From NCBI GenBank assembly GCA_000995965.1, contig LBYD01000002.1, positions 135,889 to 199,888 of the forward strand: DNA of 64,000 nt. Direction: 5' to 3'. The notes under the pieces are model-generated. The model did not search any database and was not told the origin of the DNA. It was given only the letters and a program-made list of their open reading frames with translations. This stretch comes from Candidatus Moranbacteria bacterium GW2011_GWC2_40_12. Lineage in GTDB: Bacteria; Patescibacteriota; Minisyncoccia; Moranbacterales; UBA11712. A program made the position numbers and the translations under genes. Shown here in pieces: positions 128 through 41,310 of the stretch (positions within the stretch are counted from its first letter, which is position 1; each line of letters begins with the position of its first letter).

Positions 128-1576
128 TTATTTCCTTTTGATTATCCTCACAACCCCCTTATCCGCATCCACTTCCACTAAATCGCCGTCACGCAAAACT
201 TTTGTCGCGATTTTGGTGCCGATGATACAAGGCTTCTTCATTTCTCTTGCGATAATAGCCGCATGACAAGTTATTCCGCCCTCATCTGTTATGAAAGCAG
301 CTGCTTTTTCCATCGCACCTATAAAATCGGGTGTTGTCATGGCCGCGACCAAGATGCACCCTTTTCTGCTTTTTCTAAAATCTGATTTATCCCTAATAAT
401 AACTACTCTTCCTCTAACTTTTCCGCGAAAGGCGACATTGCCTTTGACTTCATGGTTTCCAATATTATCTTCTTCGAAATATTTGTTCTTATACTTTTCT
501 ATTTCTTCTTGATTGGAGGAAAAAATTATCTTATTGGGAGATTTTGAAAAAATAATATAATTCTTCAATCTTTTGGTGAGTTCCGATTTTCTGACTGATC
601 TAATCGATGAAATTTCATTTAGTCTAAACTGAGCAATTTCCCTAAAAGCATATCCCTTTCTTTTCCCTATTTCTGCGAGCAAAGGCCTGATATTAAACAT
701 GGCTAAATTCAAATAATCCGTTCTAAATGTTCGGAAATATACCAATTCCTTTGCGTTTTTAATCAATCGTCTTGCGAATTTATCGGCTTTAATTTGCCTT
801 AAAATTTCCTCTGATTTTTGTTTTAGATTGCGCCTGTTTTTTTCTAGAGTAACTAACTTCTTTGCGCAGTCCTCTTTTACTGATTCTTTCAATCTGACAA
901 ACACGTCTTCTTCAGTCCAAGCATCATCCAAACCGCCTCTTGTCATCCAGCCAAACTTCTTGATGTGTCTTTTGATCCTGACTCGATATTTTTTTGGCAA
1001 ACCAGAGACCAATTGAACGGATATCTTGCCCTTTCTGAACGCAACCGCAATTTTTAGAAGCGCCTCTTGCTCTTTGTTAATAATGTTTTTTTTATATGGC
1101 GAAGACAGAATTGCTAAATCTTCGCCGATATCAATTCTTCTTTTTAATAATTCTCTCAATTTTTCCTCTAAAGGAATCTGCAGACAAAAACCGGCAAGCG
1201 TGACCGAAAAAGTTTCATAATAATCTGTAAATTCATCAAAAATATAGACTAATTCTTCCAAGCTAAGATCTGTTAAATCTATCTTCTTAATATCTGCTGA
1301 TTTTTTTATTAAATCTTCTCCTAACTTATATGTATTCGAAAAAAACTTGTCCAGATAATTTTTTTCTTTCGAATCTTTTTCAAGCAGTCTTTCTCCTAGC
1401 TTCTTGAAGTCTTTGGAATAAAACCAGCGATCAAGAATCACTCCCGATGGTATAAACAAGCTAGAGATAAAGAATATCTTTTCGACCTTTTTTGGCTTAG
1501 AAAAACCTCTGATAAATAATTCGGATGTCAGCACGCCATATTTTCGGGATACGTATTGCTCAAATATTTTTTTCAT
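128..1576 (-). CDS. PEP-utilizing enzyme mobile (phosphohistidine swivel) domain protein, paralog 1
   Basis: 482 aa ORF. The C-terminal ~95 aa (GKVRGRV..TTPDF..AAAFITDEGGITCHAAIIARE..P..GTKIATKVL.DGDLVEVDADKGVV) matches the PEP-utilizers mobile domain of PpsA/PPDK/rifampin phosphotransferase, with the catalytic His in TCHAAI. The N-terminal ~380 aa is an unrecognised domain shared with five paralogs downstream. Confidence 0.75.
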   Translation of the reverse strand: MKKIFEQYVSRKYGVLTSELFIRGFSKPKKVEKIFFISSLFIPSGVILDRWFYSKDFKKLGERLLEKDSKEKNYLDKFFSNTYKLGEDLIKKSADIKKIDLTDLSLEELVYIFDEFTDYYETFSVTLAGFCLQIPLEEKLRELLKRRIDIGEDLAILSSPYKKNIINKEQEALLKIAVAFRKGKISVQLVSGLPKKYRVRIKRHIKKFGWMTRGGLDDAWTEEDVFVRLKESVKEDCAKKLVTLEKNRRNLKQKSEEILRQIKADKFARRLIKNAKELVYFRTFRTDYLNLAMFNIRPLLAEIGKRKGYAFREIAQFRLNEISSIRSVRKSELTKRLKNYIIFSKSPNKIIFSSNQEEIEKYKNKYFEEDNIGNHEVKGNVAFRGKVRGRVVIIRDKSDFRKSRKGCILVAAMTTPDFIGAMEKAAAFITDEGGITCHAAIIAREMKKPCIIGTKIATKVLRDGDLVEVDADKGVVRIIKRK

Positions 1577-2628
1577 CTGTATCTTTTTATTATCTTCACA
1601 ACCCCCTTATCCGCATCAACTTCCACTAGATCACCGTCGTGCAAAACTTTGGTGGCAATTTTCGTGCCAACAATGCAAGGTTTCTGTATTTCTCTTGCTG
1701 TTATAGCCGCGTGGGAGAGCGTGCCGCCAGCGTCAGTTATAAATGCCGACGAATTCATAATCAGGGACAAAAACGCCGGCCTTGTCATTCCAGTAACCAG
1801 TATTTCTCCTTTTTTAATCGTCTGAAGCGTAGGATCTAAGATGATTCTGACTCGACCTCTAACTTTTCCGCGAAAGGCTGGATGTCCTTTTAGAATTTTG
1901 GTAATTTGTTTTCCAATAATTTTATTTTCGTAAAGTTCAGCTTTCTTGCCAGACAGTATTCTGTATTCGCCTCGTTTAAATATCATCGCTATTTTTCTGA
2001 ATCTTTCTTCAAGTATTTTCATCATAGGGACGACATTTTCTTTGTGATAACAATCTATTTCATCCTCTGTTAATTCATTGATTAAAAAAACAGGATATGA
2101 AGTTTTCCGAGAAATCCCAAGGAAATATCTTTGAAAAAATTTTTCTGATTCAACATAAATATGTTCGGAATAAACTCGAGCCTTACTAAATTCTAAAAGC
2201 AACTTCCCATAATCTTTTTTCAAAAGAAAATCGCTAGAAAATTTTATTGCCGCATGCCAAGCGACATAATTTTTCATCGCCTCTAATACTGTGAAATAAT
2301 GTTTTTCTGTTAACTTTTTTTCTTTATGTATTTCCTTTAACATTTTATCTATATAATCGGTTTGCTTTCTAATATTTTTTATCCAAAGAAAAGCTATTTT
2401 TCTGTTTGATTCTATTTTTCGAGCTAGCTTATCGCCAAATTTGGTTATTTCTATTTCTGGCACGAAACCGGCGCTTAAGCCTTTAGCGCCTATTACAAGA
2501 TAATTATCAAAAGAGGTTCCTAGATATTTCCTCATACCTTTAGTATAAAGAAATCCAGGAAATGAAGATGACAACATTCCCCATTTTCCATCCCAAGTCT
2601 TTGTCCACTTCTTATCTTTTTCCATCAT
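1573..2628 (-). CDS. PEP-utilizing mobile domain protein, paralog 2 (short N-terminal domain)
   Basis: 351 aa. Same C-terminal swivel-His domain (TLSHAAITARE, HDGDLVEVDADKGVVKIIKR). Its 3' DNA is ~80% identical to paralog 1, and a 4-nt ATGA overlap couples it to paralog 1. Confidence 0.75.
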   Translation of the reverse strand: MMEKDKKWTKTWDGKWGMLSSSFPGFLYTKGMRKYLGTSFDNYLVIGAKGLSAGFVPEIEITKFGDKLARKIESNRKIAFLWIKNIRKQTDYIDKMLKEIHKEKKLTEKHYFTVLEAMKNYVAWHAAIKFSSDFLLKKDYGKLLLEFSKARVYSEHIYVESEKFFQRYFLGISRKTSYPVFLINELTEDEIDCYHKENVVPMMKILEERFRKIAMIFKRGEYRILSGKKAELYENKIIGKQITKILKGHPAFRGKVRGRVRIILDPTLQTIKKGEILVTGMTRPAFLSLIMNSSAFITDAGGTLSHAAITAREIQKPCIVGTKIATKVLHDGDLVEVDADKGVVKIIKRYR

Positions 2629-3086
2629 ACTTTATTTATCATCATAAGCGCCGCCTCAGCCGCTTCGCGGCCTTTGTTTTCTTTACCGCGGGAGCGGACT
2701 TGGGCTTGCTTCAGATTGTTGCACGTTAGCACTCCAAATCCGATCGGGATATCGAATTTTAGCATCACGTCCATGATGCCTCGCGAGGATTCATTGCAAA
2801 TATAATAATAGTGATCGGTCTGGCCTTTGATGACACAGCCGATAGCGACAAGCGCGTCGTATTTTTTTGTTTGCGCCAGCCTTTGGCAAGCCAGCGGGAT
2901 TTCAAAAGACCCTGGAACCCAAACAGTTTTTATATTTCCCGCCTTAACTTTATTTTCCTTGAGCGTTTCCAGCGCGCCATCAAGCATTGATTTCGTGATA
3001 TTGCTATTGAACTGCGAAACCACAATTCCAATTTTCAATTTTGACCCGTCATTTTTTTTCGAGTGCCCTTTTTTAGCATTTAGCAT
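2625..3086 (-). CDS. ribH: 6,7-dimethyl-8-ribityllumazine synthase
   Basis: 153 aa with KIGIVVSQFN.., GSFEIPLA and VIKGQTDHY motifs typical of RibH. Confidence 0.85.
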   Translation of the reverse strand: MLNAKKGHSKKNDGSKLKIGIVVSQFNSNITKSMLDGALETLKENKVKAGNIKTVWVPGSFEIPLACQRLAQTKKYDALVAIGCVIKGQTDHYYYICNESSRGIMDVMLKFDIPIGFGVLTCNNLKQAQVRSRGKENKGREAAEAALMMINKV

Positions 3087-3675
3087 GTCCGGTATTTTTT
3101 AAAATATTAAAAATATATTTCGCGATTGCATCCGTCTCAATATTCACTTTTGCGCCGACTTTGATTTTTCCGAGATTGGTGTTTTCAAGCGTATAGCTCA
3201 CGAGCGAGACCGTAAACCAGTTTTTCTTTGACTCAACGATTGTGAGGCTGATTCCATCAATGGAAACCGACCCCTTCGGCGCCATAAATTTCATAAATTC
3301 TTTCGGAACTTTTATTTTTATCACTATCGATTCTTTCACTTTTTTTATTTCAATAATTTTACCCACACAATCCACGTGCCCCTGCACAATGTGCCCGTCC
3401 ATGAGATCCCCAACCCGCAAACTTCGCTCAAGATTAACTTCTTTACCTTTTTGAAAATCTCCGACAGTAGTTTTTTTGACTGTTTCCGGCATATATTCGA
3501 CCGTAAAATTACCACGGCTTATTTTATTGACCGTCGAGCAGACACCATTCACTGAAATACTTTCGCCAAGTTTAATATCCCAGCCTCTTGGAATTTTTAT
3601 CTCAACAAAAAGACTTCCCTTTTGCCAAGATATTCTGTCGACTTTCGATAATTTTTTGATTATTCCTGTAAACAT
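3073..3675 (-). CDS. ribE: riboflavin synthase alpha subunit
   Basis: 200 aa starting MFTGII.., with SISVNGVCSTV and GDLMDGHIVQGHVD lumazine-binding repeat motifs. Confidence 0.85.
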   Translation of the reverse strand: MFTGIIKKLSKVDRISWQKGSLFVEIKIPRGWDIKLGESISVNGVCSTVNKISRGNFTVEYMPETVKKTTVGDFQKGKEVNLERSLRVGDLMDGHIVQGHVDCVGKIIEIKKVKESIVIKIKVPKEFMKFMAPKGSVSIDGISLTIVESKKNWFTVSLVSYTLENTNLGKIKVGAKVNIETDAIAKYIFNILKNTGHAKC

Positions 3676-3705
3676 AAGCGACTCGCGAATTTGAGCAAAT
3701 TATAG

Positions 3706-4485
3706 CTAATATAAGCGAACTCTTGGATTTACGATTCGTTTATACTGCAGTTTATTCAACTTGAAATTTATTATTATGCCGAGCTTTAAACCTGTTGCGT
3801 CTAGATATCTTAGCACTTGTTTAACGTCATTGTAATGTATAAAATTCACCCGCTTGAACTCCAGCAAAATTTTATTATCTATAACAAAATCTGCAAAAAA
3901 TTCTCCTATTTCAGAATTATCTTTGGTTTTTACCACCATTTGTCTTTCTTTCTCATAAGGCATTTTGAGCTTTTTTAGTCTTTCCTCAAACAATTTCTGA
4001 TAATGCTTTTCCTGATAAATATTTCCAAGTTCATTGTGCACTTCCATAGCCAAACCGACTATTTTATAACTTAACTCCGGATAAACCAAACCTTTATTCG
4101 CTCCCATTCGCTTTTCATTAGCTCCATATTCGCGAGTTATTCTTTCAATATCTTTTTTTATCTGCCTTTTCAACTCTTCCTCGCTTTTGAATTTCATGAT
4201 GTTTCTAATCTTCTCCCCAATCTCTATTTCAATTTCTTTTCCGTATAAATCCCCCTTGAATCCGATAAGATGCGCTTCGAGCAATTTCCCATCCTGACTC
4301 ACAAAAATCCCAGCCAACCACTCATTCGCTCCGATTCGCTTTCCATTCGCTCCTAATTCGCGAGTTATTACTTTCCCCGCATAAACCCCGTTTTCAATTT
4401 TTTCATGAAGCTTAATATTAGCCGTTGGAAAATCAAGTTTTTTTCCTTTTCCCTTGCCATGAATTACTGTTCCGCATATTTTCAT
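3706..4485 (-). CDS. riboflavin kinase domain fused to GxxExxY-family domain, with repeat-encoded in-frame insertions
   Basis: N-terminal GKGKGKKLDFPTANI..EAHLIGFKGDLYGKEIEIEI resembles the RibF kinase domain. C-terminal IVGLAMEVHNELGNIYQEKHYQ...LGIIINFK resembles GxxExxY proteins. Two segments, RELGANGKRIGANEW and REYGANEKRMGANKG, are encoded by copies of the dispersed attcgc repeat. Confidence 0.6.
   Translation of the reverse strand: MKICGTVIHGKGKGKKLDFPTANIKLHEKIENGVYAGKVITRELGANGKRIGANEWLAGIFVSQDGKLLEAHLIGFKGDLYGKEIEIEIGEKIRNIMKFKSEEELKRQIKKDIERITREYGANEKRMGANKGLVYPELSYKIVGLAMEVHNELGNIYQEKHYQKLFEERLKKLKMPYEKERQMVVKTKDNSEIGEFFADFVIDNKILLEFKRVNFIHYNDVKQVLRYLDATGLKLGIIINFKLNKLQYKRIVNPRVRLY
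4096..4138 (-). repeat. attcgc-family repeat copy inside coding sequence (encodes ..TREYGANEKRMGANKG..)
   Basis: Sequence attcgctcccattcgcttttcattagctccatattcgcgagtt; related copies at 4323-4366, 3686-3745, 12881-12960, 13416-13522 and 50706-50810. Confidence 0.7.
4323..4366 (-). repeat. attcgc-family repeat copy inside coding sequence (encodes ..RELGANGKRIGANEW..)
   Basis: Sequence cattcgctccgattcgctttccattcgctcctaattcgcgagtt, in the same orientation as the copy at 4096, ~230 bp away. Confidence 0.7.
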
Positions 4486-5951
4486 GATTTTCTTTTCAAT
4501 ATTTTTACGACGCCGTGATTCGCCCGCACTTCCACCAAATCTCCATCATGCAAAACTTTTGTCGCAATTTTTGTTGCCACAATCCCGGGAATTTTGAGCT
4601 CGCGTGAAACAATCGCCGCGTGGCAAGTCATTCCGCCTTCATCGGTCACAACTGCAGAGGCTTTCCTCAAAGCGACTATGTAATCAGGAGTTGTCATGGT
4701 TGTAACGAGAATATCGCCTTTTTTCATTTTCCCAATTTCTCTGGGACTAAGCACAATTTTTACTCTTCCCGTCACGTTTCCCCGGTTGACAACCAATCCC
4801 CTGAGTTCCTGTATATTTTTTTCCACACTTTTCTTCGCATACCGCTGAAATGTTTTTTGAGCAGCTATTCCCGAAAACAAATGGATCATTTCTTCGCCCG
4901 GATCCGCGTAGACCAAAAATCCTTTCTTTCTTCTCACGATTTCATCTTCGCTTACTGCCCGTCCGCTTACCAAACTTTCCAGATCCCCGACTGTATAAAA
5001 AAATAAGTTGTCGCTCTTTACTCTATACCTTCCGGAAAATTCCTTGAGAAACAAACTTATGACATAATTCGCCTGGAAAATGAATGATTTCCGGAGATCC
5101 TGCCACCAAATGCAAAAAGCCAGTTGTCGGCCTATTGTCAGGATTGTTTTTGGCAGTTTATGTCTTTTTGCTGTTTTTTTCTTATTTTTAATCGTCTCTT
5201 TTTTTATTTTTTCAATTTCCCTTATCTTCTTTCTCGCCCGCTCCGCAGTTATCCCGCCTAAATTTTTCCCGAAGAAAGAAATAGGCAATATTTGAACATG
5301 ATGGTAACTGTTGAGCATCCAAAAATATTTCTTCTGGTGCTCCGCCAGCCTTTCACCTCTTTTTTTATTATCTTTTTCAAGCGCTATTGCCAGCAAATCC
5401 ATACTTTCTTTTTGATAAAAAGAAAGGTCTTCCGGAGCAGTCAAGCTTTCAAGGGCCTGAATAAAATCGCTTTCGTCTCTTATTCTATTTCTCAATTCTT
5501 TCACGAGCAGCTGCTCGCCGCCCCAGCCGGCCATTTCCGGCAGAAGCCCATTTCGCCAAAAATTTCTATTATAAATTGAAATGAATTTTGAAAATAGTTT
5601 TCTCAAATCAACGTCCGCCAACGAAGAAAGATTCGTTTTTTCGATTTTATTTTTGATCAGGATAAAATTCTTCAAATCTTTTTGCCATTTCGCATAAGCT
5701 TTTTTGAATCTCGTTTTGCTCAAAACATATTTTTTGAAAATTTTCTCCCCGTCATCGTGCAATTTTTTGTGGTCGCATACAAAAACCAGTTTTCCTTTTT
5801 CATAAAAGATAACGTTGGGAGGCCACCCGGGTTGATAAATCCGGCTGAAAATAAACGTTCCCAAATTCCAAAAATCGGGGAACACCGGCTGGCCATCAGC
5901 CGGTCCCCAATAAAATATTTTTCTTTTTGGATCAATCTTGATCTTGATCAT
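4482..5951 (-). CDS. PEP-utilizing mobile domain protein, paralog 3
   Basis: 489 aa with C-terminal swivel-His domain (GGMTCHAAIVSRELKIPGIVATKIATKVLHDGDLVEVRANHGVVKILKRK). Confidence 0.75.
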   Translation of the reverse strand: MIKIKIDPKRKIFYWGPADGQPVFPDFWNLGTFIFSRIYQPGWPPNVIFYEKGKLVFVCDHKKLHDDGEKIFKKYVLSKTRFKKAYAKWQKDLKNFILIKNKIEKTNLSSLADVDLRKLFSKFISIYNRNFWRNGLLPEMAGWGGEQLLVKELRNRIRDESDFIQALESLTAPEDLSFYQKESMDLLAIALEKDNKKRGERLAEHQKKYFWMLNSYHHVQILPISFFGKNLGGITAERARKKIREIEKIKKETIKNKKKTAKRHKLPKTILTIGRQLAFCIWWQDLRKSFIFQANYVISLFLKEFSGRYRVKSDNLFFYTVGDLESLVSGRAVSEDEIVRRKKGFLVYADPGEEMIHLFSGIAAQKTFQRYAKKSVEKNIQELRGLVVNRGNVTGRVKIVLSPREIGKMKKGDILVTTMTTPDYIVALRKASAVVTDEGGMTCHAAIVSRELKIPGIVATKIATKVLHDGDLVEVRANHGVVKILKRKS

Positions 5952-7426
5952 TATAATTTTCTTATCAGCCCCTTTTCCGCATCGACTTCAATGGTATCTC
6001 CGTCTTTTATGACGGACAAAATTCCTTGCACGCCGACAATGCAGGGAGTCTTGAGCTCCCGCGAAACAATGGCCGCGTGGCAGGTGATGCCTCCTTCTTG
6101 CGAAATAATCGCTCCCGCGATTTTCAAAACGGGGAGAAATTCGGGGCGGGGGTTGGGAGCCACCAATATATCGCCCTTTTTCATTTTGTGAAAATCATTT
6201 TGGTCCCGGATGATTTTCACTTTTCCCTCGACAATCCCCGCGTAAGCCGGCATGCCACTAAGCCCCGAATATTTGCCAACTTGCTCTTTGAGAAATACAT
6301 TGAGTCTTTCGGCCTGTTTTCCCTTCATGGCCGAAAATTTTTCGAGGCCGGTTTTGAAATATAGCCAGCCTTTCGGCCGCGATTCAATTTCGCGTATTCT
6401 TTGTTTGTTCAGCTTGAACAAGTTTTTCATTTCCCAGTGGAACATATATTCCACTGCGTTTATCTCAAGTCCGGACTTGCGGCTGAATTCTTCCGCAAAT
6501 TTTCGCAAGGTGTTCCCGGCCATCTGGTTGAAACTTTTTCGCGCGTCACGGAAATTCCCCAGTATCGCCAGAAAATTTATCACGTTAATAAATTCTTTTG
6601 AAAGCCTATATTTTTTCGCTATTCTTTTTTTTCTGCTTTCTAAATTGGCAAGCGCTCTTCGCATTTCTTTTTCCTCCCGAAGTTTCTTTTTATCTTGAAT
6701 AATTTCTTTGATTTTTTTGAGGAAATGCCGCTGGTCCAGATAATGGACTTTCGCAAAATCATTCTGCAGCCAATAATAGTTTGCGACGATACTTCGCAAA
6801 TATTTGTTTCTCCCGTCTTCTGAAATATTTTTCTTCAACATTATCTCCGCCAGTTTCAGCAGGTCCATCCTTTCCTTTTGCAAAAATGACGGTCCCGGGG
6901 GAGTTAGCAAGATTTCCAAATCACTCCCATCAATATTTTTCTTTTCCCTGTCCATGGCCTTCCGCAATATTTCTTCTCCAAAATAGTCGAAGGAATCAAG
7001 AAAAATGGCTTCATACCAAACAGCAAGGTAGATATCGGTAAATTTTTTAAATAAAGCTAAAAGTTCGGCGTCTGAATATTTCGACAAATCTTGGCCAAAT
7101 GTTTTTTTGTTTAAGTTCAAATATGGGTTGACGTATTTTTTGTGCCAGTTGTTGATTAGCTTGGAAATAAATTTTTTATCCCTCTTTTGTCTTTCATAAT
7201 AATATCTTCCTCCGCTCTCCAAAGAGCGTTTAGAGATATAATCGTCCATAAAATCATTTTTTATATAGACAAAAAGTTCGTATTTCGGCGGAATCTTTTT
7301 CCCGAATATTTTCATGAGAGAACATGCGTGCCACGGATAGGAAATATAAAGCGGCTTCACCGCCGCTCCCTGCTGGTACCATTCGATTTTCCCGATTTTT
7401 TCCCTTATTTCTTTGCAGTTCATCAA
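5951..7426 (-). CDS. PEP-utilizing mobile domain protein, paralog 4
   Basis: 491 aa with C-terminus GGITCHAAIVSRELKTPCIVG..DGDTIEVDAEKGLI. Confidence 0.75.
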   Translation of the reverse strand: MMNCKEIREKIGKIEWYQQGAAVKPLYISYPWHACSLMKIFGKKIPPKYELFVYIKNDFMDDYISKRSLESGGRYYYERQKRDKKFISKLINNWHKKYVNPYLNLNKKTFGQDLSKYSDAELLALFKKFTDIYLAVWYEAIFLDSFDYFGEEILRKAMDREKKNIDGSDLEILLTPPGPSFLQKERMDLLKLAEIMLKKNISEDGRNKYLRSIVANYYWLQNDFAKVHYLDQRHFLKKIKEIIQDKKKLREEKEMRRALANLESRKKRIAKKYRLSKEFINVINFLAILGNFRDARKSFNQMAGNTLRKFAEEFSRKSGLEINAVEYMFHWEMKNLFKLNKQRIREIESRPKGWLYFKTGLEKFSAMKGKQAERLNVFLKEQVGKYSGLSGMPAYAGIVEGKVKIIRDQNDFHKMKKGDILVAPNPRPEFLPVLKIAGAIISQEGGITCHAAIVSRELKTPCIVGVQGILSVIKDGDTIEVDAEKGLIRKL

Positions 7427-7427
7427 T

Positions 7428-8861
7428 TTATAGCTTGATTATTTTTGCCACGCCCTTTGTCGCATCAACTTCAACAATGTCATTGTCCTCAAATATTTTC
7501 GTGGCAATTTTCGTCCCCACGATACACGGGATTTTCAATTCCCGCGAAACAATTGCGGCATGGCAAGTGAGCCCGCCCTCATCCGTAATAATTGCAGCCG
7601 CTTTTTTCATTACCGCGATATAGTCTGGGGTAGTCATGCCGCAGATCAACACATCTCTCCTTTTAATCTTCCTCAATGCGTCTTCTAGCCCATTACAGAC
7701 TTTCGCTGTTCCGGTCACTTTGCCCGGCATAGCTCCGAAGCCTTTAACTTCATTGCCGTTCTCAATATTTTCTTTAATCTCTGATCTGAATTTTTTTACA
7801 GCAGCCTTCCCTCTAAAAACCTTTAGTCCGTTGCCGTCTATAAGCGTAAGCGTTGCCTGTTTGCCTTTGATAATTTCTTTACGGTTAAACTTGCCTTTTT
7901 GCAGCGCTTCAAAAACCTCGTTGCCCCAAAGCCAGTTCAGGTCCTCTTCATCAATTTTGAGACGCCTGGACATTTCCAGCATAATCAAATAAAGGGCATG
8001 GTTTGTCTTTACCTGCATCTCTTTTCGCGCCTCGTGATAGTATGCATATTTATCTAAAAATTCGAGCCAAATCGAAATTTTTTCCAGCTTATATTTTTTT
8101 GTTAATCTTGACCGATTGTTTTTTATCTCCCGTTGCTGCGCTCTGATTTCTTTCAATTTTTTCTTTGCCCTGGCTTTATCTGAAATCCTTTTTATTCGAG
8201 AAATAAAATATTTTTCCGAGTGCGGCGTCAAATTTTCCCAGCCAAGACCCGTCCACCAATACCGCTTATATAGCCCCGTATAATCTTTTTCGGTTATATT
8301 TTTTTTCAGGGCAAGCTTCAGCACGGCTTCTTCCTCTTGGTTCAGATACGTTTTGTATGCGGGAATCGATATTGCCTCGAAGAATTTCTGGAATTCTTCT
8401 TCGTTTATTGGTTTTTTCAGATTCTCTTTTATTTTATTTCGAAGAAAATCTTCAAAGTGTACATCAAACGCATCGATGTCCACGTTTAGGAGCCCATGCG
8501 CGGGTCCCGCTTCTCTAATCAGAAAAATATAAAGATTGATTAATTCACCATTTGAACAATCGCGAAGATTGTACTCATAAATCTTTTCAGCCGCAATTAT
8601 TGCTTTTTTAATAAGTTTGTCGAACCGATGAAAGTGTTTTTTTCTTCCAAGGGAAGTGGCGCAAAGCTTCATCGTATGGCGGCCCAAGACGCGGATTCGT
8701 TTTTCTCCCCAAGCGAAGATGAGTTTTGGCCCATGATCAAAGAAAATAGACTCTACGACAGGCGCGCCGGTGAGTTTAGCCGAATACTCATGATGCCCCA
8801 GTAGCGCAAGCGTAAACCAATTTGGATAAATTGTTCCCCTTGAATAAGTTAACCAATCCAT
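7428..8861 (-). CDS. PEP-utilizing mobile domain protein, paralog 5
   Basis: 477 aa with C-terminus GGLTCHAAIVSRELKIPCIVGTKIATKIFEDNDIVEVDATKGVAKIIKL. Confidence 0.75.
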   Translation of the reverse strand: MDWLTYSRGTIYPNWFTLALLGHHEYSAKLTGAPVVESIFFDHGPKLIFAWGEKRIRVLGRHTMKLCATSLGRKKHFHRFDKLIKKAIIAAEKIYEYNLRDCSNGELINLYIFLIREAGPAHGLLNVDIDAFDVHFEDFLRNKIKENLKKPINEEEFQKFFEAISIPAYKTYLNQEEEAVLKLALKKNITEKDYTGLYKRYWWTGLGWENLTPHSEKYFISRIKRISDKARAKKKLKEIRAQQREIKNNRSRLTKKYKLEKISIWLEFLDKYAYYHEARKEMQVKTNHALYLIMLEMSRRLKIDEEDLNWLWGNEVFEALQKGKFNRKEIIKGKQATLTLIDGNGLKVFRGKAAVKKFRSEIKENIENGNEVKGFGAMPGKVTGTAKVCNGLEDALRKIKRRDVLICGMTTPDYIAVMKKAAAIITDEGGLTCHAAIVSRELKIPCIVGTKIATKIFEDNDIVEVDATKGVAKIIKL

Positions 8862-8959
8862 TTGAAGGAATAATCAAGCTGAATTACTAGCCAAATGTTA
8901 GCTTAAAAAGGCCTTTTTTACAAGAGATTTCGCAATTGTTTCACGGAAACACACCGAAC

Positions 8960-8988
8960 TTGACATTTAGAGAAAAAGAGGCTATAAT
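8960..8988 (+). promoter_or_regulatory. consensus sigma70-type promoter (TTGACA-17-TATAAT) driving the high-GC cassette gene
   Basis: ttgaca at 8960-8965, a 17-nt spacer, then tataat at 8983-8988; a perfect match to both hexamers. Confidence 0.6.
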
Positions 8989-9131
8989 TATACGTTATTG
9001 TTCTTTGAAAGCGGGTTTCACGCATTTGCCTGCCGATTAGTTAACTCCAATGTGGTCGCAAAAAAATAATCTTGCGTTTACTTTGAGTTAACTAACGGCA
9101 CCTGGTGCCGATCATTTTGAAGAAGGATGAC

Positions 9132-9779
9132 ATGAACGACAAACCCCAAGTAACGATTGAAACGGTTGAGGTTAATATCCACGGCATGCGCCATGGGGAC
9201 AAGGACGGCGATACCCTGACTGAAAAAGGCAAGGAACAAGTCGCGAAAAGTGCGCGGAAAAACCTGGCCGGTATTTCGATTGACGCCTACTATTCTTCCC
9301 TGCGTACTCGCGCCTTCGAGACGGCTGATGTCGTCTATGAAACCATCGGCTCGAAGACCGAGGTCGAAATCGCCCATCGCCGCGCCGCTTTCGATTTCTG
9401 TGGCGCACCCGGCATCACCAACACCAAGGCTGTAACGGAGGGCGAAAAAGCCTACCGCGAAGAGCACGGCATCGAGAAAGAAACGGTAGGCACCTGGAGG
9501 CAAGGCGCTCCTGCCTGGACGGATTTCCTCCGCGGCCGCGTTTACCAGGGACTCAAAGATGTGGCCACCGAGCAGGCCTTCGACGCCAAGGGCAACGCGG
9601 TGAAAAACGTTTTTATCGGTTCCCACAGCCCGACCATCGAGTTGGCCGTGGCCGACCCCAATTTTCCCCGGCTCCGGGAAGCGGACATGGTGCTCTACCG
9701 TTTCATCGTCGTGAAGACGAACGGCGAAATTACCTCTGTGAACCTGGAAACCGTCGACTACATCGACCGCGGGTTCTAA
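9132..9779 (+). CDS. histidine phosphatase (phosphoglycerate-mutase-like) family protein, in a high-GC horizontally acquired cassette
   Basis: IHGMRHGDKDGDTLTEKGKEQ fits the RHG...LTE.G..Q signature, and FIGSHSPTIE the C-terminal SH motif. GC is ~58% against ~38-40% in the flanks. ATG 9132 has an aagga RBS. The ORF track starts at GTG 9105, which lies inside a cggcacc/ggtgccg palindrome. Confidence 0.6.
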   Translation: MNDKPQVTIETVEVNIHGMRHGDKDGDTLTEKGKEQVAKSARKNLAGISIDAYYSSLRTRAFETADVVYETIGSKTEVEIAHRRAAFDFCGAPGITNTKAVTEGEKAYREEHGIEKETVGTWRQGAPAWTDFLRGRVYQGLKDVATEQAFDAKGNAVKNVFIGSHSPTIELAVADPNFPRLREADMVLYRFIVVKTNGEITSVNLETVDYIDRGF

Positions 9780-9822
9780 ACTCGCACCAACCAGGCCGGC
9801 TAAACCAAAGCCCGTGCCTGCG

Positions 9823-9859
9823 AAAGCCCAGTCTTCGGATTGGGCTTTCTTCTTTTTTG
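9823..9859 (+). terminator. rho-independent terminator (possibly bidirectional)
   Basis: Stem aaagcccagtc, loop ttcg, stem gattgggcttt, followed by cttcttttttg; lies between convergent genes. Confidence 0.7.
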
Positions 9860-10054
9860 AAAAAAAATCGGCACACATCTGAAATATGCCGACATTATTC
9901 ATTCTATTTTTGGTCATTAATTATTGTTTTTTTCTTAATTTTTCCATCCCTTCTTCCGCGATTTTGCGAAATTCGTCATAAAATAAATTTTCCATCATCT
10001 TTTCCAGAAGATCGAGCAGTTTTTTTCGGTTTTTGTAAACAAATGCCATATTAG

Positions 10055-10522
10055 TTATTCTCTCTTCCGTATATCTGCCAAAGCGTCCATGTCATGAAAA
10101 AATTTCTTATTCGGCGTGTCATAAACTTTTTTCCATTCAACGTCCTTGAGCTGATCAAAATCGTTAATGGTGATTATATCCACAACCTCTTTCGTTTTTT
10201 TCTTGTCATATCCCACTGAATCCAAAATGTCTTTGGCTATTTTAGCGCCGGCCAGCATATGCACCAGTTTCGCGTTGACGATTTTTTTTGGTCCAGTCAC
10301 ATAGGCAAAATGTTCCGGAAGAAGCAACGCATGACCAATGTCGTGCATCATTGCAACTGGAATGATCACGTCTTTGTCATGCTTTATATTTCCCTGGTAG
10401 CTTAATACTAATTTTACAGTTTCTTTCGCATGCACGTCATCACCCGGACGGCCTTTTTTCAAGATCGGCAAAGCCTTTTTCCAGATTTTTTCGTATTTCT
10501 CCGGAAGGTTCTCGATTTTCAT
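10055..10522 (-). CDS. HD-domain phosphohydrolase
   Basis: 155 aa with HAKETVKL and MMHDIGHALL, an H..HD metal-binding signature. Confidence 0.65.
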   Translation of the reverse strand: MKIENLPEKYEKIWKKALPILKKGRPGDDVHAKETVKLVLSYQGNIKHDKDVIIPVAMMHDIGHALLLPEHFAYVTGPKKIVNAKLVHMLAGAKIAKDILDSVGYDKKKTKEVVDIITINDFDQLKDVEWKKVYDTPNKKFFHDMDALADIRKRE

Positions 10523-10526
10523 AAAA

Positions 10527-12074
10527 TTACGCTTTCCTTAAAATTTTAACGATCCCCCTATTGGCATCAACCTCGACTAGATCGCCGTCTTTCAAAATTT
10601 TCGTGGCAATTTTTGTTCCGACGATGCAGGGTTTCTTGAGTTCCCGAGAAACAATCGCCGCGTGCGAGATAATTCCTCCTGTGTCCGTCACGATCGCTGC
10701 CGCTCTTTTGAGACCCATAATCAAATCCGGATTAGTTGCCGAGGAAACCAATATATCCCCGTCTTTTACTTTGGCTGCATCTTTAGCGACAAGAACTATT
10801 TTCACCATTCCTTTAGCTTTTCCTTTATACGCCATCATCCCTTTGAGTTCACCAGTTTTCTCCTGGTCGAACTCTTTGTCGCTTTCTATTTTCAGTTTAG
10901 TAATAATTTCTTTTGCCTCCTTGCCTTCAAAAACTTTTATTCCCCCATTTATTGCGATATAACAACAGCGCCTTGTCCTTTCTTTCGCAATCTTTCGGTA
11001 TTTTTTTGCTTTCCTGTTATTAATCGCATCCTTGATATCTTCGAGCACTAAATATTTAATCTCCTTGGATGTCATCACTAATCTTCTCGCGATCTCATTA
11101 ATTATTTTATCCATGGCGACATATGATTTCTGATAAATTCCTTTTCGGAAATCCTTGATGAACATCATTTCCGCTGAAACTTGAAACGCATACTTCAAAT
11201 TTTCTGGCAGTTTTATTTTTTTTTGAATCCTCTGTTTCTCTTTCCTAATATTTTCATAATGATTCAGTATTATATTTTTCTGCTTCTTGGCGTCCCCTGT
11301 TTTCAGATTTTCGGCAAGCGCCCCAAGAAGATATTCCGCAGTCATGGCCGGTCCGGCATAGGCATATGTCAGCCAACCAAAATCTTTGAGATGTTTTTGA
11401 AATAGCTTATCAACCGACGGATACTTTTCGCTAAAATTTTTGTAATTGTTCTTTTCAATGTCCTGAATGACATTTTTTGATTTTTTGTCGGCCATTATTT
11501 TCAGGAGTAAATCCAACCTGGCAATTTCTTCTTCCTGAACTTCACTTTTCTTTTCGCTGGAGCTAAGAACCGTATAGTAATCACTAAACTTTTTCTCCTG
11601 CCCAAGTTTTTCAAGATACTTTCTAAACTCTGCTATGAGATAATCGCTCAAATAGGCTTTCTCCATCCCATCCATTGACGAAGGGATCCAACCCCAAACT
11701 CTCAAGGTCCGCAGTTTCCCCATATAATCAAGATACAATTGTAATAATTGCTTATCGCTTAATTTTTTTACGTTGGCTATTCTGTCAATGCGTTTGCAGA
11801 ATTTCATCAGTTCATCGCTATACTGATAAATGTTCTTGATAGATTTTCGGAAGAATGCTTTATCATCGATTAACTTTTTCAAAAAACCTTCTCCGACAGC
11901 ATTTGCCGATTCGCGATCATAATACATATGAATTCGGTCCTTTTCAAAATAGACGACAGCTTTTTTCACCACTGCCCTGGAAATTTTTCCTATATCTTTG
12001 GTAATCGTGAGGTCAGAAATATACCATGGGTAGATATACATATTGTCCCGCTCAAAAAGAAGTTTGAGAGCCAT
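10527..12074 (-). CDS. PEP-utilizing mobile domain protein, paralog 6
   Basis: 515 aa with C-terminus GGIISHAAIVSRELKKPCIVGTKIATKILKDGDLVEVDANRGIVKILRKA. Confidence 0.75.
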   Translation of the reverse strand: MALKLLFERDNMYIYPWYISDLTITKDIGKISRAVVKKAVVYFEKDRIHMYYDRESANAVGEGFLKKLIDDKAFFRKSIKNIYQYSDELMKFCKRIDRIANVKKLSDKQLLQLYLDYMGKLRTLRVWGWIPSSMDGMEKAYLSDYLIAEFRKYLEKLGQEKKFSDYYTVLSSSEKKSEVQEEEIARLDLLLKIMADKKSKNVIQDIEKNNYKNFSEKYPSVDKLFQKHLKDFGWLTYAYAGPAMTAEYLLGALAENLKTGDAKKQKNIILNHYENIRKEKQRIQKKIKLPENLKYAFQVSAEMMFIKDFRKGIYQKSYVAMDKIINEIARRLVMTSKEIKYLVLEDIKDAINNRKAKKYRKIAKERTRRCCYIAINGGIKVFEGKEAKEIITKLKIESDKEFDQEKTGELKGMMAYKGKAKGMVKIVLVAKDAAKVKDGDILVSSATNPDLIMGLKRAAAIVTDTGGIISHAAIVSRELKKPCIVGTKIATKILKDGDLVEVDANRGIVKILRKA

Positions 12075-12880: not shown

Positions 12881-12960
12881 AACTCGCGAATGCGGAGCTA
12901 ATGCAATGCGAATAAGTGCGAATTCGCTCAAGTTAGCTTTAATTCGCTCAAATTAGCGAG
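12881..12960. repeat. attcgc-family palindromic repeat element (intergenic yebC-ruvC)
   Basis: aactcgcgaatgcggagctaatgcaatgcgaataagtgcgaattcgctcaagttagctttaattcgctcaaattagcgag, made of left-arm gcgaat units and right-arm attcgc units. Confidence 0.65.
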
Positions 12961-13466
12961 TGCGTATTATTGGAATCGACCCGGGAACGGCCACGACAGG
13001 CTGGGCCGTCGTTGAGGAAGTGAAAAAAAATCCGCGGCTCATTGCTTGCGGGTGCATCAACACGAGCAAATTTAACTCCGACGCGGAGCGGCTGGTTGAA
13101 ATTGGGCGTGATATCGGTTCGCTCATCAAAAAATACAAGCCCGATGAAGCAGCCATTGAGGATCTTTTCTTTTTCAAAAATTTGAAAACCGCCATCACTG
13201 TCGCCCAAGCGCGCGGAGTAATTCTCTACGAAATAAAAAAAAACGGGGTGTCCCTTTCAAATTATACTCCGCTTCAAGTGAAACAAGCCCTCACCGGATA
13301 CGGCCGGGCTGAAAAAAAACAAATTCAGATCATGGTAAAAAATATTTTGAAGCTCCGCTCGGCTCCAAAACCGGACGACGCCGCCGACGCGGTCGCGATT
13401 GCGATATGTCATCTTAACTCGCGAATGAGAGAGCGAATTAATCGCGAATCGGAGCGAACTCGATAA
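12960..13466 (+). CDS. ruvC: crossover junction endodeoxyribonuclease RuvC (GTG start; C-terminal tail encoded by a repeat element)
   Basis: RIIGIDPGTATTGWAVVE.., AIEDLFF.KN and ADAADAVAIAICH motifs. The last ~16 aa (SRMRERINRESERTR) are read from the attcgc repeat at 13416-13522. Confidence 0.85.
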   Translation: MRIIGIDPGTATTGWAVVEEVKKNPRLIACGCINTSKFNSDAERLVEIGRDIGSLIKKYKPDEAAIEDLFFFKNLKTAITVAQARGVILYEIKKNGVSLSNYTPLQVKQALTGYGRAEKKQIQIMVKNILKLRSAPKPDDAADAVAIAICHLNSRMRERINRESERTR

Positions 13467-13522
13467 CAAGACACACTGTTATTCGCTCGTATTCGTTTCA
13501 CATTTGCTCAAATTCGCGAGTT
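13416..13522. repeat. attcgc-family palindromic repeat element (full-length, with terminal inverted repeats)
   Basis: aactcgcgaatgagagagcgaattaatcgcgaatcggagcgaactcg...ttattcgctcgtattcgtttcacatttgctcaaattcgcgagtt; termini aactcgcgaat and attcgcgagtt. Confidence 0.7.
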
Positions 13523-13594
13523 TTTTGTTGACAAAACCGCCCAAAAGCGGTATTTTTTAATCAGTATTTTACCTAAATTTAAGCCAAAAACCAT

Positions 13595-16625: not shown

Positions 16626-17581
16626 AAAAAGTTCTCATTCTATATGGGAAAAAAGGCGTAAAGCGACCTCCCTTTGAAAATGATTCCTACCGGATTTCTT
16701 ATGAAATCCTTTACGCCCTTTGTGAGAAAAGAGGAATAAAAATGTTCCGTGCTCCTTATCAAGAATATGACCACAAAAAAAAATATTTCAAGCGGGCTTG
16801 GTTTTTTGACGCGAAACATAAACGCTGGAGCATAACAAAAAATGTCATACCCCATCTTATTTTCGACAAAACTGCGGCAAACTCTCAAGCCGACTGCGAA
16901 AAAGAATCGATCGGGAAAGATTATTTATTTTTCAATGCGCTTGAATTTTCCCAGCTGGTAAGAAATAAACTCGCGATTAGCCTGTTATTTAGCAAATGGA
17001 GCAAAAAAAGCTGGCTCATCGAAAACAAACGCGACTTAAAAAAAATATTACTCAAAATTACCACCGGTAAACTGGTCATCAAGCCGCTAAGGGGCGGCGG
17101 GGGCAAAAATGTCCAGGTACTCGAAAAAAAGGACGCCCTCAAAAACGCTCGCCTAAAAGGTACCTATTTGATTCAGGATTATATTGACTCTTCAGCCGGC
17201 ATTTCCGGCATTAGCAAATCCATGCACGATTTACGGTTAGTTATGATTAACGATAAGATTATCTATTCTTTCGTCCGAGAGCCAAAAGCAGGATGTTTTC
17301 TCGCAAATTGTTCGCAAGGAGGAACTTTGAAAATTGTCCCTTTGAAAGATATTCCGAGGTCTGTTTACCCGATCATTAGCCATGCAACAAAAATGTTCAA
17401 TACTTTTTCTCCCCGATTTTATTCAATTGATCTAATGTTTGACAAAACAAAAAGGCCATGGGTAGTCGAGCTCAATGCCATGCCCGGGCTTAACATATGC
17501 GCTAAGGAAGAGAAGCCATATATTTTACGGTTGTATAAGGAACTAGCCAAGGTTTTTAAGGCTAAAGCAGAATTATGCTAA
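16622..17581 (+). CDS. ATP-grasp ligase, YheC/YheD-like (tandem copy B)
   Basis: Paralog of the preceding gene (KLVIKPLRGGGGKNV, HDLRLVMIN, REPKAGCFLANCSQGGT, ELNAMPGL). Start set at ATG 16622 (MKKVLILYGKKG), which is coupled to the upstream stop; the track ORF begins further upstream at 16490. Confidence 0.6.
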   Translation: MKKVLILYGKKGVKRPPFENDSYRISYEILYALCEKRGIKMFRAPYQEYDHKKKYFKRAWFFDAKHKRWSITKNVIPHLIFDKTAANSQADCEKESIGKDYLFFNALEFSQLVRNKLAISLLFSKWSKKSWLIENKRDLKKILLKITTGKLVIKPLRGGGGKNVQVLEKKDALKNARLKGTYLIQDYIDSSAGISGISKSMHDLRLVMINDKIIYSFVREPKAGCFLANCSQGGTLKIVPLKDIPRSVYPIISHATKMFNTFSPRFYSIDLMFDKTKRPWVVELNAMPGLNICAKEEKPYILRLYKELAKVFKAKAELC

Positions 17582-25788: not shown

Positions 25789-26940
25789 CTAGTTTCGAAT
25801 CGGCATTATGATATGAAGATAATTTTCATCCAATTTTTCTTTTTCCAGCACCTCCCGGAAAATTACCGGCCCGAAACTGTCATTAAAACCGATATAGACC
25901 ATGTTATTTGAAAAAGAGTTGAGGGCGTCCACAAGATAACGGTTATTAAAAGCTATTATATTTTCTCCCTTGGACTTGCCTTGACAAGGAACTTCGGCAA
26001 TATTTTCACCGGTTTCAACTGACTGGGATTCGATTTTCATTTTGCCGCTGTCTCCTTTTATGCAAAGTTTCACTTCGCGGCTTTTGCTGTCAGAAAAAAT
26101 ACTGGCTGTCCGAACCGCTTTGACTAAATCATCCCGCCCGACAAATACGCTCGAAGAAAATTCTTTTGGTATGACTTGCTTGTATTCTGGGTATTTTCCA
26201 TCAATCAGCCGTGAAACAAACACAACTTCATCGATTTCAAAAAAAATCTGGCTTTCACCGATATAAACCTTTATGCGGCCGCTTTCTTCGCTTATGCTCC
26301 TCGTCACCTCCTGCAAAGTTTTGGCTGGCACAATGATGGAGGAGTTTTTTGAAATAAATTTTTGGTAATTTGCTCCTATATCATTTTTTTCCAGCTTTAT
26401 TTTGGCCTCCGCCAAACGAAAGCTATCCGTAGCCGCAAGAACGAGGCCATCTTTCTCAAAACCGAAATAAACTCCTGTCAATTCTTGCCTCGTCTCTGAA
26501 ATTGCGGCCGAAGCAATCACTTTAGCGGCTTTATTTTGAAAAACCGGCCCATCAATTTCAAAAAGATGCTCTGATTGGGGCTTGGGTATGATTGGAAAAT
26601 CTTTGGCATCAACCCCTTTTATAACCGCCCGACTTCCTTCGCTTGTCAGATATAGCGTTTGATTTTTTGCTTCAATACTCATTTTTGATCCATCTGGAAT
26701 ATTACTCAAATAACTTCCCGCAATTCTTCCCGGAACAGCGATTTTTCCTTCTTTTTCAATTTTTGCCCGAAGCGAACAAACTACGCCAATTTCAAGATTT
26801 GTCGCTGATACTTTTAGCCGGCTTTTTTCCACTTCCAGCAGGATATTTGATAAAATAGGCAGAGTGAGATTTTTGCCTATTATTTTTTCAGCAATTAAAA
26901 TCCCTTTTTTAAAATTTTCTGACAAAGATTGCAATTTCAT
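25789..26940 (-). CDS. dnaN: DNA polymerase III beta sliding clamp
   Basis: 383 aa; the N-terminus reads NLTLPILSNILLEVEKSRLKVSATNLEIG. Confidence 0.9.
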   Translation of the reverse strand: MKLQSLSENFKKGILIAEKIIGKNLTLPILSNILLEVEKSRLKVSATNLEIGVVCSLRAKIEKEGKIAVPGRIAGSYLSNIPDGSKMSIEAKNQTLYLTSEGSRAVIKGVDAKDFPIIPKPQSEHLFEIDGPVFQNKAAKVIASAAISETRQELTGVYFGFEKDGLVLAATDSFRLAEAKIKLEKNDIGANYQKFISKNSSIIVPAKTLQEVTRSISEESGRIKVYIGESQIFFEIDEVVFVSRLIDGKYPEYKQVIPKEFSSSVFVGRDDLVKAVRTASIFSDSKSREVKLCIKGDSGKMKIESQSVETGENIAEVPCQGKSKGENIIAFNNRYLVDALNSFSNNMVYIGFNDSFGPVIFREVLEKEKLDENYLHIIMPIRN

Positions 26941-27213
26941 TTTAGTAGTTAATAATAATTATTAAAGTTATATTAGTTATTTATTATATTAGGCGAGATG
27001 TTGTGGGGGTAAATTGTATTTTCGGCTTAAATAAAAATAATTTAGCGCGGTAAAATTGTGAATAGGGTTGTGGATAATTGTGGATAAGTTGAGTATATTT
27101 GTTTCAATTTCAGCACCATGGACTTTCTCCCAAGTTTATCAACTGTTTTTTCCTCTGTTATTTTTGTTAAAACAGGAACTCAGGGACACTTTTCCTCAGT
27201 TTATCCGCAGTTT
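26941..27213. promoter_or_regulatory. oriC-like region: AT-rich unwinding element plus DnaA boxes (dnaA-dnaN intergenic)
   Basis: An AT-rich tract at 26941-26995 (ttagtagttaataataattattaaagttatattagttatttattatatta), then two perfect tgtggataa boxes (the complement of ttatccaca) at 27069-27077 and 27079-27087, plus a tgtgaatag variant. Confidence 0.6.
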
Positions 27214-28608: not shown

Positions 28609-28807
28609 TGTTTAATATATTGAGTTCCCTAATTATAGCACAAAGGAAATCGGGAAGATGTGAGATCTGTTGATAATAATGTTGATAACCTGTTGAAATG
28701 GTAGCGGAGAGGGGTGAAAAAATCAAGATATTTAACGAATGCGTTGACCAAAGTGTTTTTTGCTGGTAAACTTTCAAGAGTTAATAAGAACTTATAAGAC
28801 GAAAAAG
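28609..28807. promoter_or_regulatory. dnaA-rpmH intergenic region with DnaA-box variants and candidate rpmH promoter
   Basis: tgttgataa at 28668-28676 and 28680-28688 (the complement of ttatcaaca, one mismatch from consensus); ttgacc at 28744, 17 nt, then taaact. Confidence 0.45.
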
Positions 28808-28942
28808 ATGAAGAGGACATATCAGCCAAAAAAGAAGAAAAGAGTGAGAAGGCATGGTTTTCGAAAAAGAATGCGGACCAAAGATGGTCGGGCAGTTTTG
28901 GCGCGGAGGCGCAAAAAAGGCCGGAAGAAATTAAGTGTTTAA
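28808..28942 (+). CDS. rpmH: 50S ribosomal protein L34
   Basis: [44 protein letters not shown]. Start set at the internal ATG 28808; the track ORF starts at 28760. Confidence 0.9.
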
Positions 28943-28944
28943 AA

Positions 28945-29292
28945 ATGCTGCCAGCCAAATTCAGATTGAAAAATAAGAAGGATTTCAACAATGTTTTTCA
29001 GCGAGGAAAGACGGTGTCTGACGAAGCTCTTGTGATGAAACACAAAAAAACCGAGGGCAGTATGCTTCAAATTGGTTTTTCTGTCGGTTTAAAGCTTTCT
29101 AAGAAGTCATCAGAAAGAAACCGGGTGAAGAGATGGATGCGGGAGGCAGTCAGACAACTTCTGGGCAAGATAAAAACGGGCCGTCAAATTATTTTTTTGA
29201 TTAATTCTAAGTTTCCATACGAGCAGATAAACTACGAACTTGTTAGGAAAAAAACAGAAGATCTGCTTATGCGGGCTAAGCTAATTAAATGA
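28945..29292 (+). CDS. rnpA: ribonuclease P protein component
   Basis: 115 aa; the RLKNKKDF..VFQRGK pattern and the position after rpmH. Confidence 0.85.
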   Translation: MLPAKFRLKNKKDFNNVFQRGKTVSDEALVMKHKKTEGSMLQIGFSVGLKLSKKSSERNRVKRWMREAVRQLLGKIKTGRQIIFLINSKFPYEQINYELVRKKTEDLLMRAKLIK

Positions 29293-30011: not shown

Positions 30012-30025
30012 CTTTTGATAAAATT

Positions 30026-39474: not shown

Positions 39475-39485
39475 GAATCAGATAA

Positions 39486-40649: not shown

Positions 40650-40670
40650 ATAGTTGAGAACAAAGCCTTT

Positions 40671-41222: not shown

Positions 41223-41310
41223 ATTTTTTTAGCGAGGCGATTATACCATTATGGATTATCTTTGGAAAGAGGCGAACAGACGACCGGGAAATTTCCAGTT
41301 TTTTCAGTTT

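Follow-up and report, generated by a model that had tools for sequence, protein, structure and literature searches.

Two short palindromes lie at the two ends of ruvC in a 64-kb stretch of a Candidatus Moranbacteria genome (candidate phyla radiation, CPR), hereafter the window, and the question raised by this locus is what kind of element they represent and what maintains it. The original prediction took them for members of a dispersed palindromic attcgc family resembling MITEs (miniature inverted-repeat transposable elements) or repetitive extragenic palindromic (REP) sequences; it overlooked the most telling feature of the locus, namely that two of its copies bracket the gene of a GxxExxY nuclease. 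The answer favoured here, to which we give an even chance, is a REPIN-RAYT-like family of selfish or semi-domesticated palindromes in Moranbacteria, with the GxxExxY PD-(D/E)XK nuclease as partner. Palindromic repeat families as such are familiar; what is new here is the systematic GxxExxY association together with arms made of phased motifs.

A palindromic repeat family in the window

The reality of the family is confirmed by two kinds of search. Matches to ATTCGCGAGTT at no more than one mismatch number eight in the window, against 1.98 expected, and none of 100 shuffles attains eight. An nhmmer profile made from the nine aligned arm sequences of the window returns exactly these nine arms, with E-values of 1e-9 to 2e-13; the next match, a weak partial one at 16968-16999 (E = 3.9), was taken as chance. 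Each arm measures 43 nt and consists of four ATTnGY units at 10-11 bp steps, the last of which merges into the terminus ATTCGCGAGTT. The nine arms are found at six places, as three two-arm palindromes (82-107 bp), one solo arm and one inverted pair 375 bp apart, the last belonging to an element that carries an open reading frame (ORF):

3680-3720, minus strand: arm at the far end of the ORF-bearing element (nhmmer E = 1.1e-9)
4096-4138, plus strand: arm at the near end of the ORF-bearing element (nhmmer E = 1.1e-12)
4324-4366, plus strand: solo arm inside the riboflavin kinase gene (nhmmer E = 2.4e-13)
12881-12923 (minus strand) with 12922-12962 (plus strand): palindrome arms, 82 bp, no loop
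13416-13459 (minus strand) with 13481-13522 (plus strand): palindrome arms, 107 bp, 21-nt loop
50706-50748 (minus strand) with 50767-50810 (plus strand): palindrome arms, 105 bp, 18-nt loop

The six copies first counted therefore correspond to arms at six places, but two of them are the two ends of a single 459-bp element, whose far arm occupies 3680-3720 and not 3686-3745 as had been given. Two forms share the same arms, namely a form of about 460 bp with the GxxExxY gene in its loop and the common form of 82-108 bp without the gene. The latter is non-coding, dispersed in multiple copies and bounded by the termini AACTCGCGAAT/ATTCGCGAGTT, and in size and terminal inverted repeats it agrees with a MITE; its ends, AACTCGCG/CGCGAGTT, have no GTAG or CGTC tetranucleotide of the REP type. 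The palindrome at 50706-50810 fills a spacer, 3 nt from the stop of a 485-aa gene and 6 nt from the ATG of a PrgI-family gene. The description of the full-length copies as hairpin-forming palindromes of about 100 bp holds for their size and, moderately, for their folding as single-stranded DNA (z = -1.7, -4.3 and -4.4 for the three palindromes of the window), but arm pairing is not what is preserved, as discussed below.

The ORF-bearing element and the riboflavin kinase gene

The element at 3680-4138 has the ends of the short palindromes and, at the loop position, a gene for a nuclease-fold protein, into which the reading frame of the riboflavin kinase also continues in the window:

3706-4485, minus strand: fused ORF of 259 aa, with the kinase domain (PF01687) at residues 2-117, a linker, and GxxExxY at residues 137-251
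3706-4107, minus strand: GxxExxY (PDDEXK_3) gene, Pfam PF13366 (E = 5.9e-26), TIGR04256 (E = 8e-28)

The near arm (4096-4138) encodes the linker TREYGANEKRMGAN that joins the kinase to GxxExxY, and an in-frame ATG within this arm (4107-4105) would give MGANKGLVYPELSY..., the type of N-terminus found in free-standing homologues. The GxxExxY frame, which ends at 3706, takes its final five codons (RVRLY) and its stop from the far arm (3680-3720). The solo arm at 4324-4366 is translated in frame within the kinase as ITRELGANGKRIGAN, a net insertion of 10 residues in alignments with kinases that have no element (L123, L126 and L129; L-numbers denote the comparison loci, which comprise metagenome loci and RuvC-anchored loci). 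These three kinases are 110-121 aa long, stand alone, end where the arm of the window begins and contain neither the solo-arm loop nor the GxxExxY insert, so that 3680-4138 is to be regarded as an insertion. The window shares the in-frame kinase loop with L121 and L237. In the latter, kinase and GxxExxY are encoded by two distinct genes with a 14-nt overlap, which makes the fusion in the window a local consequence of the reading frame. At L227:12800-12870 the solo-arm terminus within the riboflavin kinase gene is duplicated (ATTCGCGAGTTATTAAATTCGCGAGTAATAAC). A peptide repeat under selection was considered and rejected, most copies being intergenic and the arm frames differing between ruvC (NSRMRER) and the kinase (TRELGAN).

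The GxxExxY protein and its bracketing arms

The flanks of GxxExxY genes were read at the kinase site (in the window, L121, L227 and L237) and at six other places. Inverted arrays of the RCNAAT/ATTNGY type bracket the gene at six independent sites, and a seventh is partly flanked:

Window, 3680-4138: bracketed GxxExxY, inverted arms
L240:10001-10423: bracketed GxxExxY between the genes of an ABC ATPase and an FtsX-like protein, termini AACTCACGAAT / ATTTGTGAGTT
L243:3979-4371: bracketed GxxExxY, inverted arrays of related units
L214:6362-6757: bracketed GxxExxY, inverted arrays of related units
L246:6001-6393: bracketed GxxExxY, inverted arrays of related units
L248:6001-6423: bracketed GxxExxY, inverted arrays of related units
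L240:5297-5731: partly flanked GxxExxY, ATCCGC units

The association can also be read in the proteins themselves. Of 105 GxxExxY homologues with the YPELSY anchor, 74 have [TA]N dipeptides in an N-terminal leader; these correspond to the repeat unit read as codons (ACN/GCN-AAT), and they are 12 times as dense there as in the body of the protein. Beyond the CPR, inverted repeats closely flank the GxxExxY genes of a Treponema plasmid and a Bernardetia plasmid, the latter with CACAGAGA units, and a Persicobacter GxxExxY gene has no flanking inverted repeats.

The GxxExxY gene at L240:5144-5736, the second in its contig, goes with an ATCCGC/GCGGAT unit, short arrays of which also occur at 7834-7858 and 13591. 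This second gene with a unit of its own hints at one repeat family per nuclease lineage.

PDDEXK_3 was listed as a family of unknown function in a 2012 survey of the superfamily (PMC3424549). In the AlphaFold model (pLDDT 94.7) the GxxExxY protein adopts a PD-(D/E)XK fold, and its closest Foldseek matches, with modest scores (E ~5e-4), are Cas4 SSO0001 and lambda-type exonucleases; at the sequence level the GxxExxY part matched no solved structure. E28, D68, E78 and K80 are invariant in 45-47 homologues, and judged from these residues and the model the nuclease looks active. No transposase was found among the window proteins scanned, and the only Y1_Tnp hint, a faint one, comes from L126, a lineage without this repeat family.

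Conservation of the arms

Across 88 arms, the ATT and G of each unit and the terminal GAGT are 93-100% conserved, and the spacer positions 18-51%. Between orthologous copies, changes affect 3 of the 254 positions in motif cores and 95 of the 309 outside them (Fisher p = 2e-24), a contrast that is partly inflated, since the profile used to find the copies rewards intact cores, but too large to be explained in that way alone. The two arms of a palindrome, on the other hand, are no more alike than shuffled pairings (1234 identical positions against 1252 +/- 15); the variable fourth unit position is anti-correlated between them (match of 0.32-0.35 against 0.47-0.51 expected), and about 65% of the motif pairs have a central mismatch. 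With conserved cores and arms that do not covary, what is kept is not the pairing but the sequence of the motifs and their 10-11 bp phasing. In the larger set of copies described in the next section, motifs follow each other at 10 bp (98 cases), 11 bp (134) or 12 bp (14), which is near the helical repeat of DNA. As far as can be judged from sequence, this constraint suggests that the double-stranded DNA is recognised by a protein lying along one of its faces.

Two other functions were considered for the palindromes and rejected. Arms that lack covariation argue against a function as an RNA hairpin. As to an intrinsic terminator or promoter, a simple terminator scan marks no palindrome over its whole length and, inside one, only two short stems, both in the right arm of the copy at 12881.

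Spread, location and age of the family

A genome-wide search had been proposed for the family, and copies beyond the window are numerous. The specific arm pattern AACTCGCGAATN{4,6}RCDAATN{4,5}RCDAAT, which matches six arms in the window and none in shuffles, is found in at least 106 metagenome contigs, with about 6 chance matches estimated. A loose pattern (15 specified bases and a variable gap) gave only single chance matches in genome contigs of unrelated phyla. A phage origin was rejected, the specific pattern having no match in viral contigs. The profile, applied to the metagenome loci, the RuvC-anchored loci and the window, found 58 palindromes (44 unique), 82-108 bp long with a median of 87, and 82 further arms. 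No Rfam match was obtained for the palindromes and the literature searches yielded no description of them, in keeping with the earlier impression that the family is not a described one. The suggestion that it may be lineage-specific is likewise supported: copies are present in L121 and L123, relatives with 88-89% RuvC identity, and none was found in the four more distant Moranbacteria loci (L126-L129).

Among the 39 copies with two identifiable neighbours, 33 lie between co-directional genes, and in 27 both ends overlap a gene end or come within 15 nt of one. This tight fit against gene ends is largely due to the compactness of these genomes, in which native spacers measure only 3-20 nt. Filled and empty states of the same site are seen in relatives: an element occupies L212:2906-2992, where the spacer of L168 measures 3 nt, and L229:867-955 (infA-rpmJ), where that of L191 measures 6 nt, and other relatives have no element at the yebC-ruvC site or at either riboflavin kinase site. 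Flanks identical over 2-5 nt are no commoner than in shuffled pairings (offsets 0-3, 29 elements with canonical ends), so that the check for target-site duplications at the flanks detected none. The MITE/REP-like label is accordingly right as to a dispersed palindromic family, and REPIN-like is a more exact term than MITE, given the lack of target-site duplication and of a transposase. Elsewhere the same site is occupied across genomes whose flanks are only 72-85% identical, the copies having diverged about as much as the flanks.

Palindromes of other unit families occupy orthologous junctions at L218:560-661 (yebC-ruvC), L186:6319-6424 and L222:8130-8246, and L129 has palindromes of different units at the 3' end of ruvC (10455-10540) and at the 3' end of the kinase gene (8831). 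The units at these junctions include AACG/CGTT, CGAAA, ATGCGAAT, AACGCAAA and others. Different families at one junction could be the result of repeated hits on a few permissive junctions or of replacement of one family by another in place.

ruvC and its two palindromes

12960-13466, plus strand: ruvC, Pfam PF02075 (E = 2.3e-51)

The RuvC proteins of the window and of GW2011_GWC1_45_18 are identical. The Pfam match covers the entire model (residues 3-151), PDB alignments stop at residue 153, and this end of the alignments (residues 151-153) coincides exactly with the start of the 13416 palindrome, the left arm of which forms the last 16 codons of ruvC, with the stop codon in the loop. The gene does read through this copy as originally described, for 51 nt, but not all of the tail is new. 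N-S-R, encoded by the nine bases with which the element begins, AAC TCG CGA (13416-13424), belongs to the native RuvC motif LNSR; when RuvC C-termini were compared in 120 relatives, as had been advised, LNSR proved common to nearly all and was followed by variable tails. Genomes without the element use other codons for it, namely AAT AGT CGC in L129, AAT TCG CGC in L126 and AAC ACA CGC (N-T-R) in L128, so that only MRERINRESERTR of the tail comes from the element. An insertion site at TCGCGA (NruI-like) or AACTCGCGAGTT was tried as an explanation of the coincidence of N-S-R with the terminus and rejected: TCGCGA occurs in none of four empty sites, no ACTCGCGAGT footprint is seen, and the hexamer is frequent in the window, with 38 occurrences. 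None of the target-site models tested explains the coincidence.

The other palindrome (12881-12962) occupies the yebC-ruvC spacer and starts 1 nt past the yebC stop. It does not abut the GTG start of ruvC, as had been thought; its degenerate right terminus, ATTAGCGAGTG, contains that codon (12960), which is the sole start that preserves the conserved RIIGIDPG of RuvC. In L121 the equivalent palindrome has the full 108 bp, and the ruvC ATG lies within the arm, giving MHSRVLGIDPG; in L129 the spacer is 18 nt long and has no element. The 13416 copy and its orthologue in L121 are 93% identical, with flanks at 82-83%.

Downstream of the 13416 palindrome by 6 nt, a sigma-70-like promoter (TTGACA-17-TATTTT, 13528-13556) encloses a short GC hairpin. 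The TTGACAA...CCGCC segment is kept in distant relatives (L126, L128 and L129), downstream of ruvC and upstream of a 7TM_transglut gene.

A proposed explanation and its alternatives

Under the REPIN-RAYT-like explanation, the GxxExxY protein would be the cognate partner of the palindromes and would recognise the motif arrays as double-stranded DNA; its cutting at the arrays would drive the copying or maintenance of both forms, as the RAYT transposase does for REPINs. Copies lie in very short operon spacers or just within gene ends, and from such locations they can donate start codons, stop codons and peptide segments. The parts donated in the window are the start and tail of ruvC, the riboflavin kinase loop and the kinase-GxxExxY fusion. 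The anatomy of the family, its dispersal, its presence or absence among relatives, the arms common to both forms and the motif-specific constraint are directly supported; that GxxExxY acts on the arms we infer from co-location, shared ends and the constraint on the motifs.

Several observations weigh against this explanation. The GxxExxY protein has about 125 residues and no separate DNA-binding domain, and its ORF could equally be a passenger in, or an invader of, palindromes that were there before. The 64-kb window holds one GxxExxY gene. Comparisons with empty sites revealed neither target-site duplication nor excision footprint; the copies are old and mostly vertically inherited, and no recent transposition is seen. 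To these is added the partial inflation of the contrast between core and other positions.

The alternative that survives best, although we think it unlikely, sees in the palindromes domesticated host elements similar to REPs or to bacterial interspersed mosaic elements (BIMEs), serving as sites for host proteins or as mRNA processing or stability signals that regulate the flanking genes, with GxxExxY as an occasional passenger. Copies lying within operons, tight on stop and start codons, would be expected of such elements, as would motif cores conserved in orthologous copies over long divergence and a ruvC copy better conserved between genomes than its flanks; moreover, copies that supply start codons cannot be lost without cost. 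Yet relatives do without copies at the same sites, no site of the terminator scan spans a whole palindrome, and arms that do not covary and have centrally mismatched motif pairs argue against a role as RNA hairpin. The systematic bracketing of GxxExxY is also left without a reason.

According to a further alternative, which we consider quite unlikely, small ORFs such as GxxExxY and the four-helix-bundle gene of the 23S rRNA intervening sequence (IVS) type invade the loops of existing palindromes that another enzyme spreads in trans, in the manner of REP-targeting insertion sequences or homing endonuclease genes. The ORF does sit exactly at the loop position of an otherwise ordinary palindrome, unrelated CATTTT/AAAATG palindromes bracket a 23S_rRNA_IVP gene in the same window (49846-50290), and the inverted repeats that flank GxxExxY on the Treponema and Bernardetia plasmids have quite different motifs. 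Set against this, the GxxExxY genes whose flanks were read in CPR-type metagenome loci have ATTCGC-like motifs there even with differing termini and spacing, which suggests a specificity between motif and protein and not an opportunistic insertion, and the scan of the window proteins found no other candidate enzyme.

Chance or low-complexity similarity, or an array of CRISPR- or TIGR-type guide RNAs, is very improbable: although the units are short and conserved with variable spacers and TIGR arrays are reported from CPR bacteria (PMC12045711), profile E-values reach 1e-13, none of 100 shuffles reaches the observed count and no Rfam match exists, and an array with spacers of at least 8 nt beside an effector gene, such as the TIGR arrays with 36-nt units, 8-12 nt spacers and an adjoining Tas gene (PMC12045711), was rejected for palindromic copies of eight units with 4-5 nt spacers that are dispersed among housekeeping genes.

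The REPIN-RAYT-like explanation can be widened, as a possible but doubtful extension, to GxxExxY proteins in general, which might be the enzymes of an unrecognised class of vertically persisting replicators parallel to REPIN-RAYT, each nuclease lineage being paired with its own phased-motif palindromes; the same logic might cover the ORF-bearing rRNA intervening sequences and the different unit families at the same Moranbacteria junctions.

The genomes of Moranbacteria and other CPR members are very small and compact, yet a sizeable part of their gene junctions is taken up by the family. It alters gene ends by contributing start codons, C-terminal tails, in-frame loops and fusions, which affects gene predictions and protein families in these genomes. 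Should the link to the nuclease be true, a large protein family of unknown function would gain a role, and a long-lived partnership of enzyme and repeat would be exemplified outside the HUH enzymes; it could also illuminate the origin of ORF-bearing rRNA intervening sequences.

Other features of the window

A second, unrelated palindrome family with CATTTT/AAAATG units is found at 30513-30630, 48996-49146, 34173-34237, 49846-49889 and 50219-50290, two of its copies occupying intercistronic spacers. The pair 49846-49889 / 50219-50290 brackets the 23S_rRNA_IVP gene (four-helix bundle, TIGR02436; 49897-50265, minus strand), the N-terminus of which is encoded by the right arm (50219-50290), an arrangement that parallels that of GxxExxY.

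Positions 128-12074 (minus strand) contain a tandem of six paralogues of about 350-515 aa with a common C-terminal segment (repeat family D1), among which ribH, ribE and the kinase gene are embedded; the L121 counterparts of the array carry PF00391 (PEP-utilizers). A gene set of the chromosomal-origin type lies at 25789-30514. The minus-strand genes at 25789-26940 and 27214-28608 are expected to be dnaN and dnaA, judging by position, size and the Pfam assignments (DNA_pol3_beta and DnaA) of their L121 and L128 counterparts; rnpA, yidC and a KH/R3H (Jag-like) gene, identified by the scan, follow on the plus strand, and the window probably spans oriC. A cluster at 37750-56612 (minus strand), inside which palindromes of both families occur, resembles an apparatus for type IV secretion or conjugation. 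Among its genes are three similar to those of type IV secretion system (T4SS) pilins and those for an SLT transglycosylase, a TraG/VirB4-like ATPase (47172-49016), a PrgI-family protein (50283-50699) and large proteins without Pfam match at 42752-45814, 52298-54457 and 50814-52271.

Comparison with known systems

Several known systems resemble the family described here. Bacterial MITEs such as Correia/NEMIS and ERIC are likewise small, have terminal inverted repeats and occur in many copies that are intergenic or overlap gene ends. The present elements differ from them in lacking a target-site duplication, in a body made almost wholly of phased motifs, and in a longer form with the same arms that encodes a GxxExxY PD-(D/E)XK protein and not a known transposase.

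The Rickettsia palindromic elements (RPEs; reviewed in PMC10969869) are also palindromes of about 100 bp in a reduced genome, and they too are tolerated in frame in protein genes that stay intact, to which they add peptide segments. In contrast, the sequence is probably unrelated, the host phylum is a different one, most copies here are intercistronic and an ORF-bearing form exists.

The intervening sequences of 23S rRNA (PMC4990558) are hairpin-like and bounded by inverted repeats, and they too exist in an ORF-less form and in a form of about 430-460 bp with one ORF. Both are viewed as selfish elements with a small ORF of unknown function and an unknown mechanism of mobility, and the inverted-repeat stem around an optional small ORF has its equivalents in the window at 3680-4138 and 49846-50290. 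The intervening sequences, however, reside in helix 9, 25 or 45 of 23S rRNA, whereas the copies described here lie between or inside protein genes, no rRNA occurs in the window, and the ORF is GxxExxY and not S23p. The poor pairing of the stems also makes excision by RNase III doubtful.

The REPIN-RAYT system (PMC3337134, PMC3116915, bioRxiv 10.1101/2021.07.10.451892) differs in its enzyme, which is an HUH/Y1 transposase (RAYT, PF01797), where the bracketed gene in the present case is a PF13366/TIGR04256 protein of PD-(D/E)XK fold. It differs also in its repeat, a single REP hairpin of 20-40 nt with a GTAG/CGTC tag, as against 43-nt arms of four phased hexamers, the two arms of an element not covarying. 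In other respects the two are alike: in both, short palindromic non-coding repeats are dispersed between genes without target-site duplication and persist vertically over long periods, and in both, the repeat in inverted orientation also stands on either side of one small enzyme gene.

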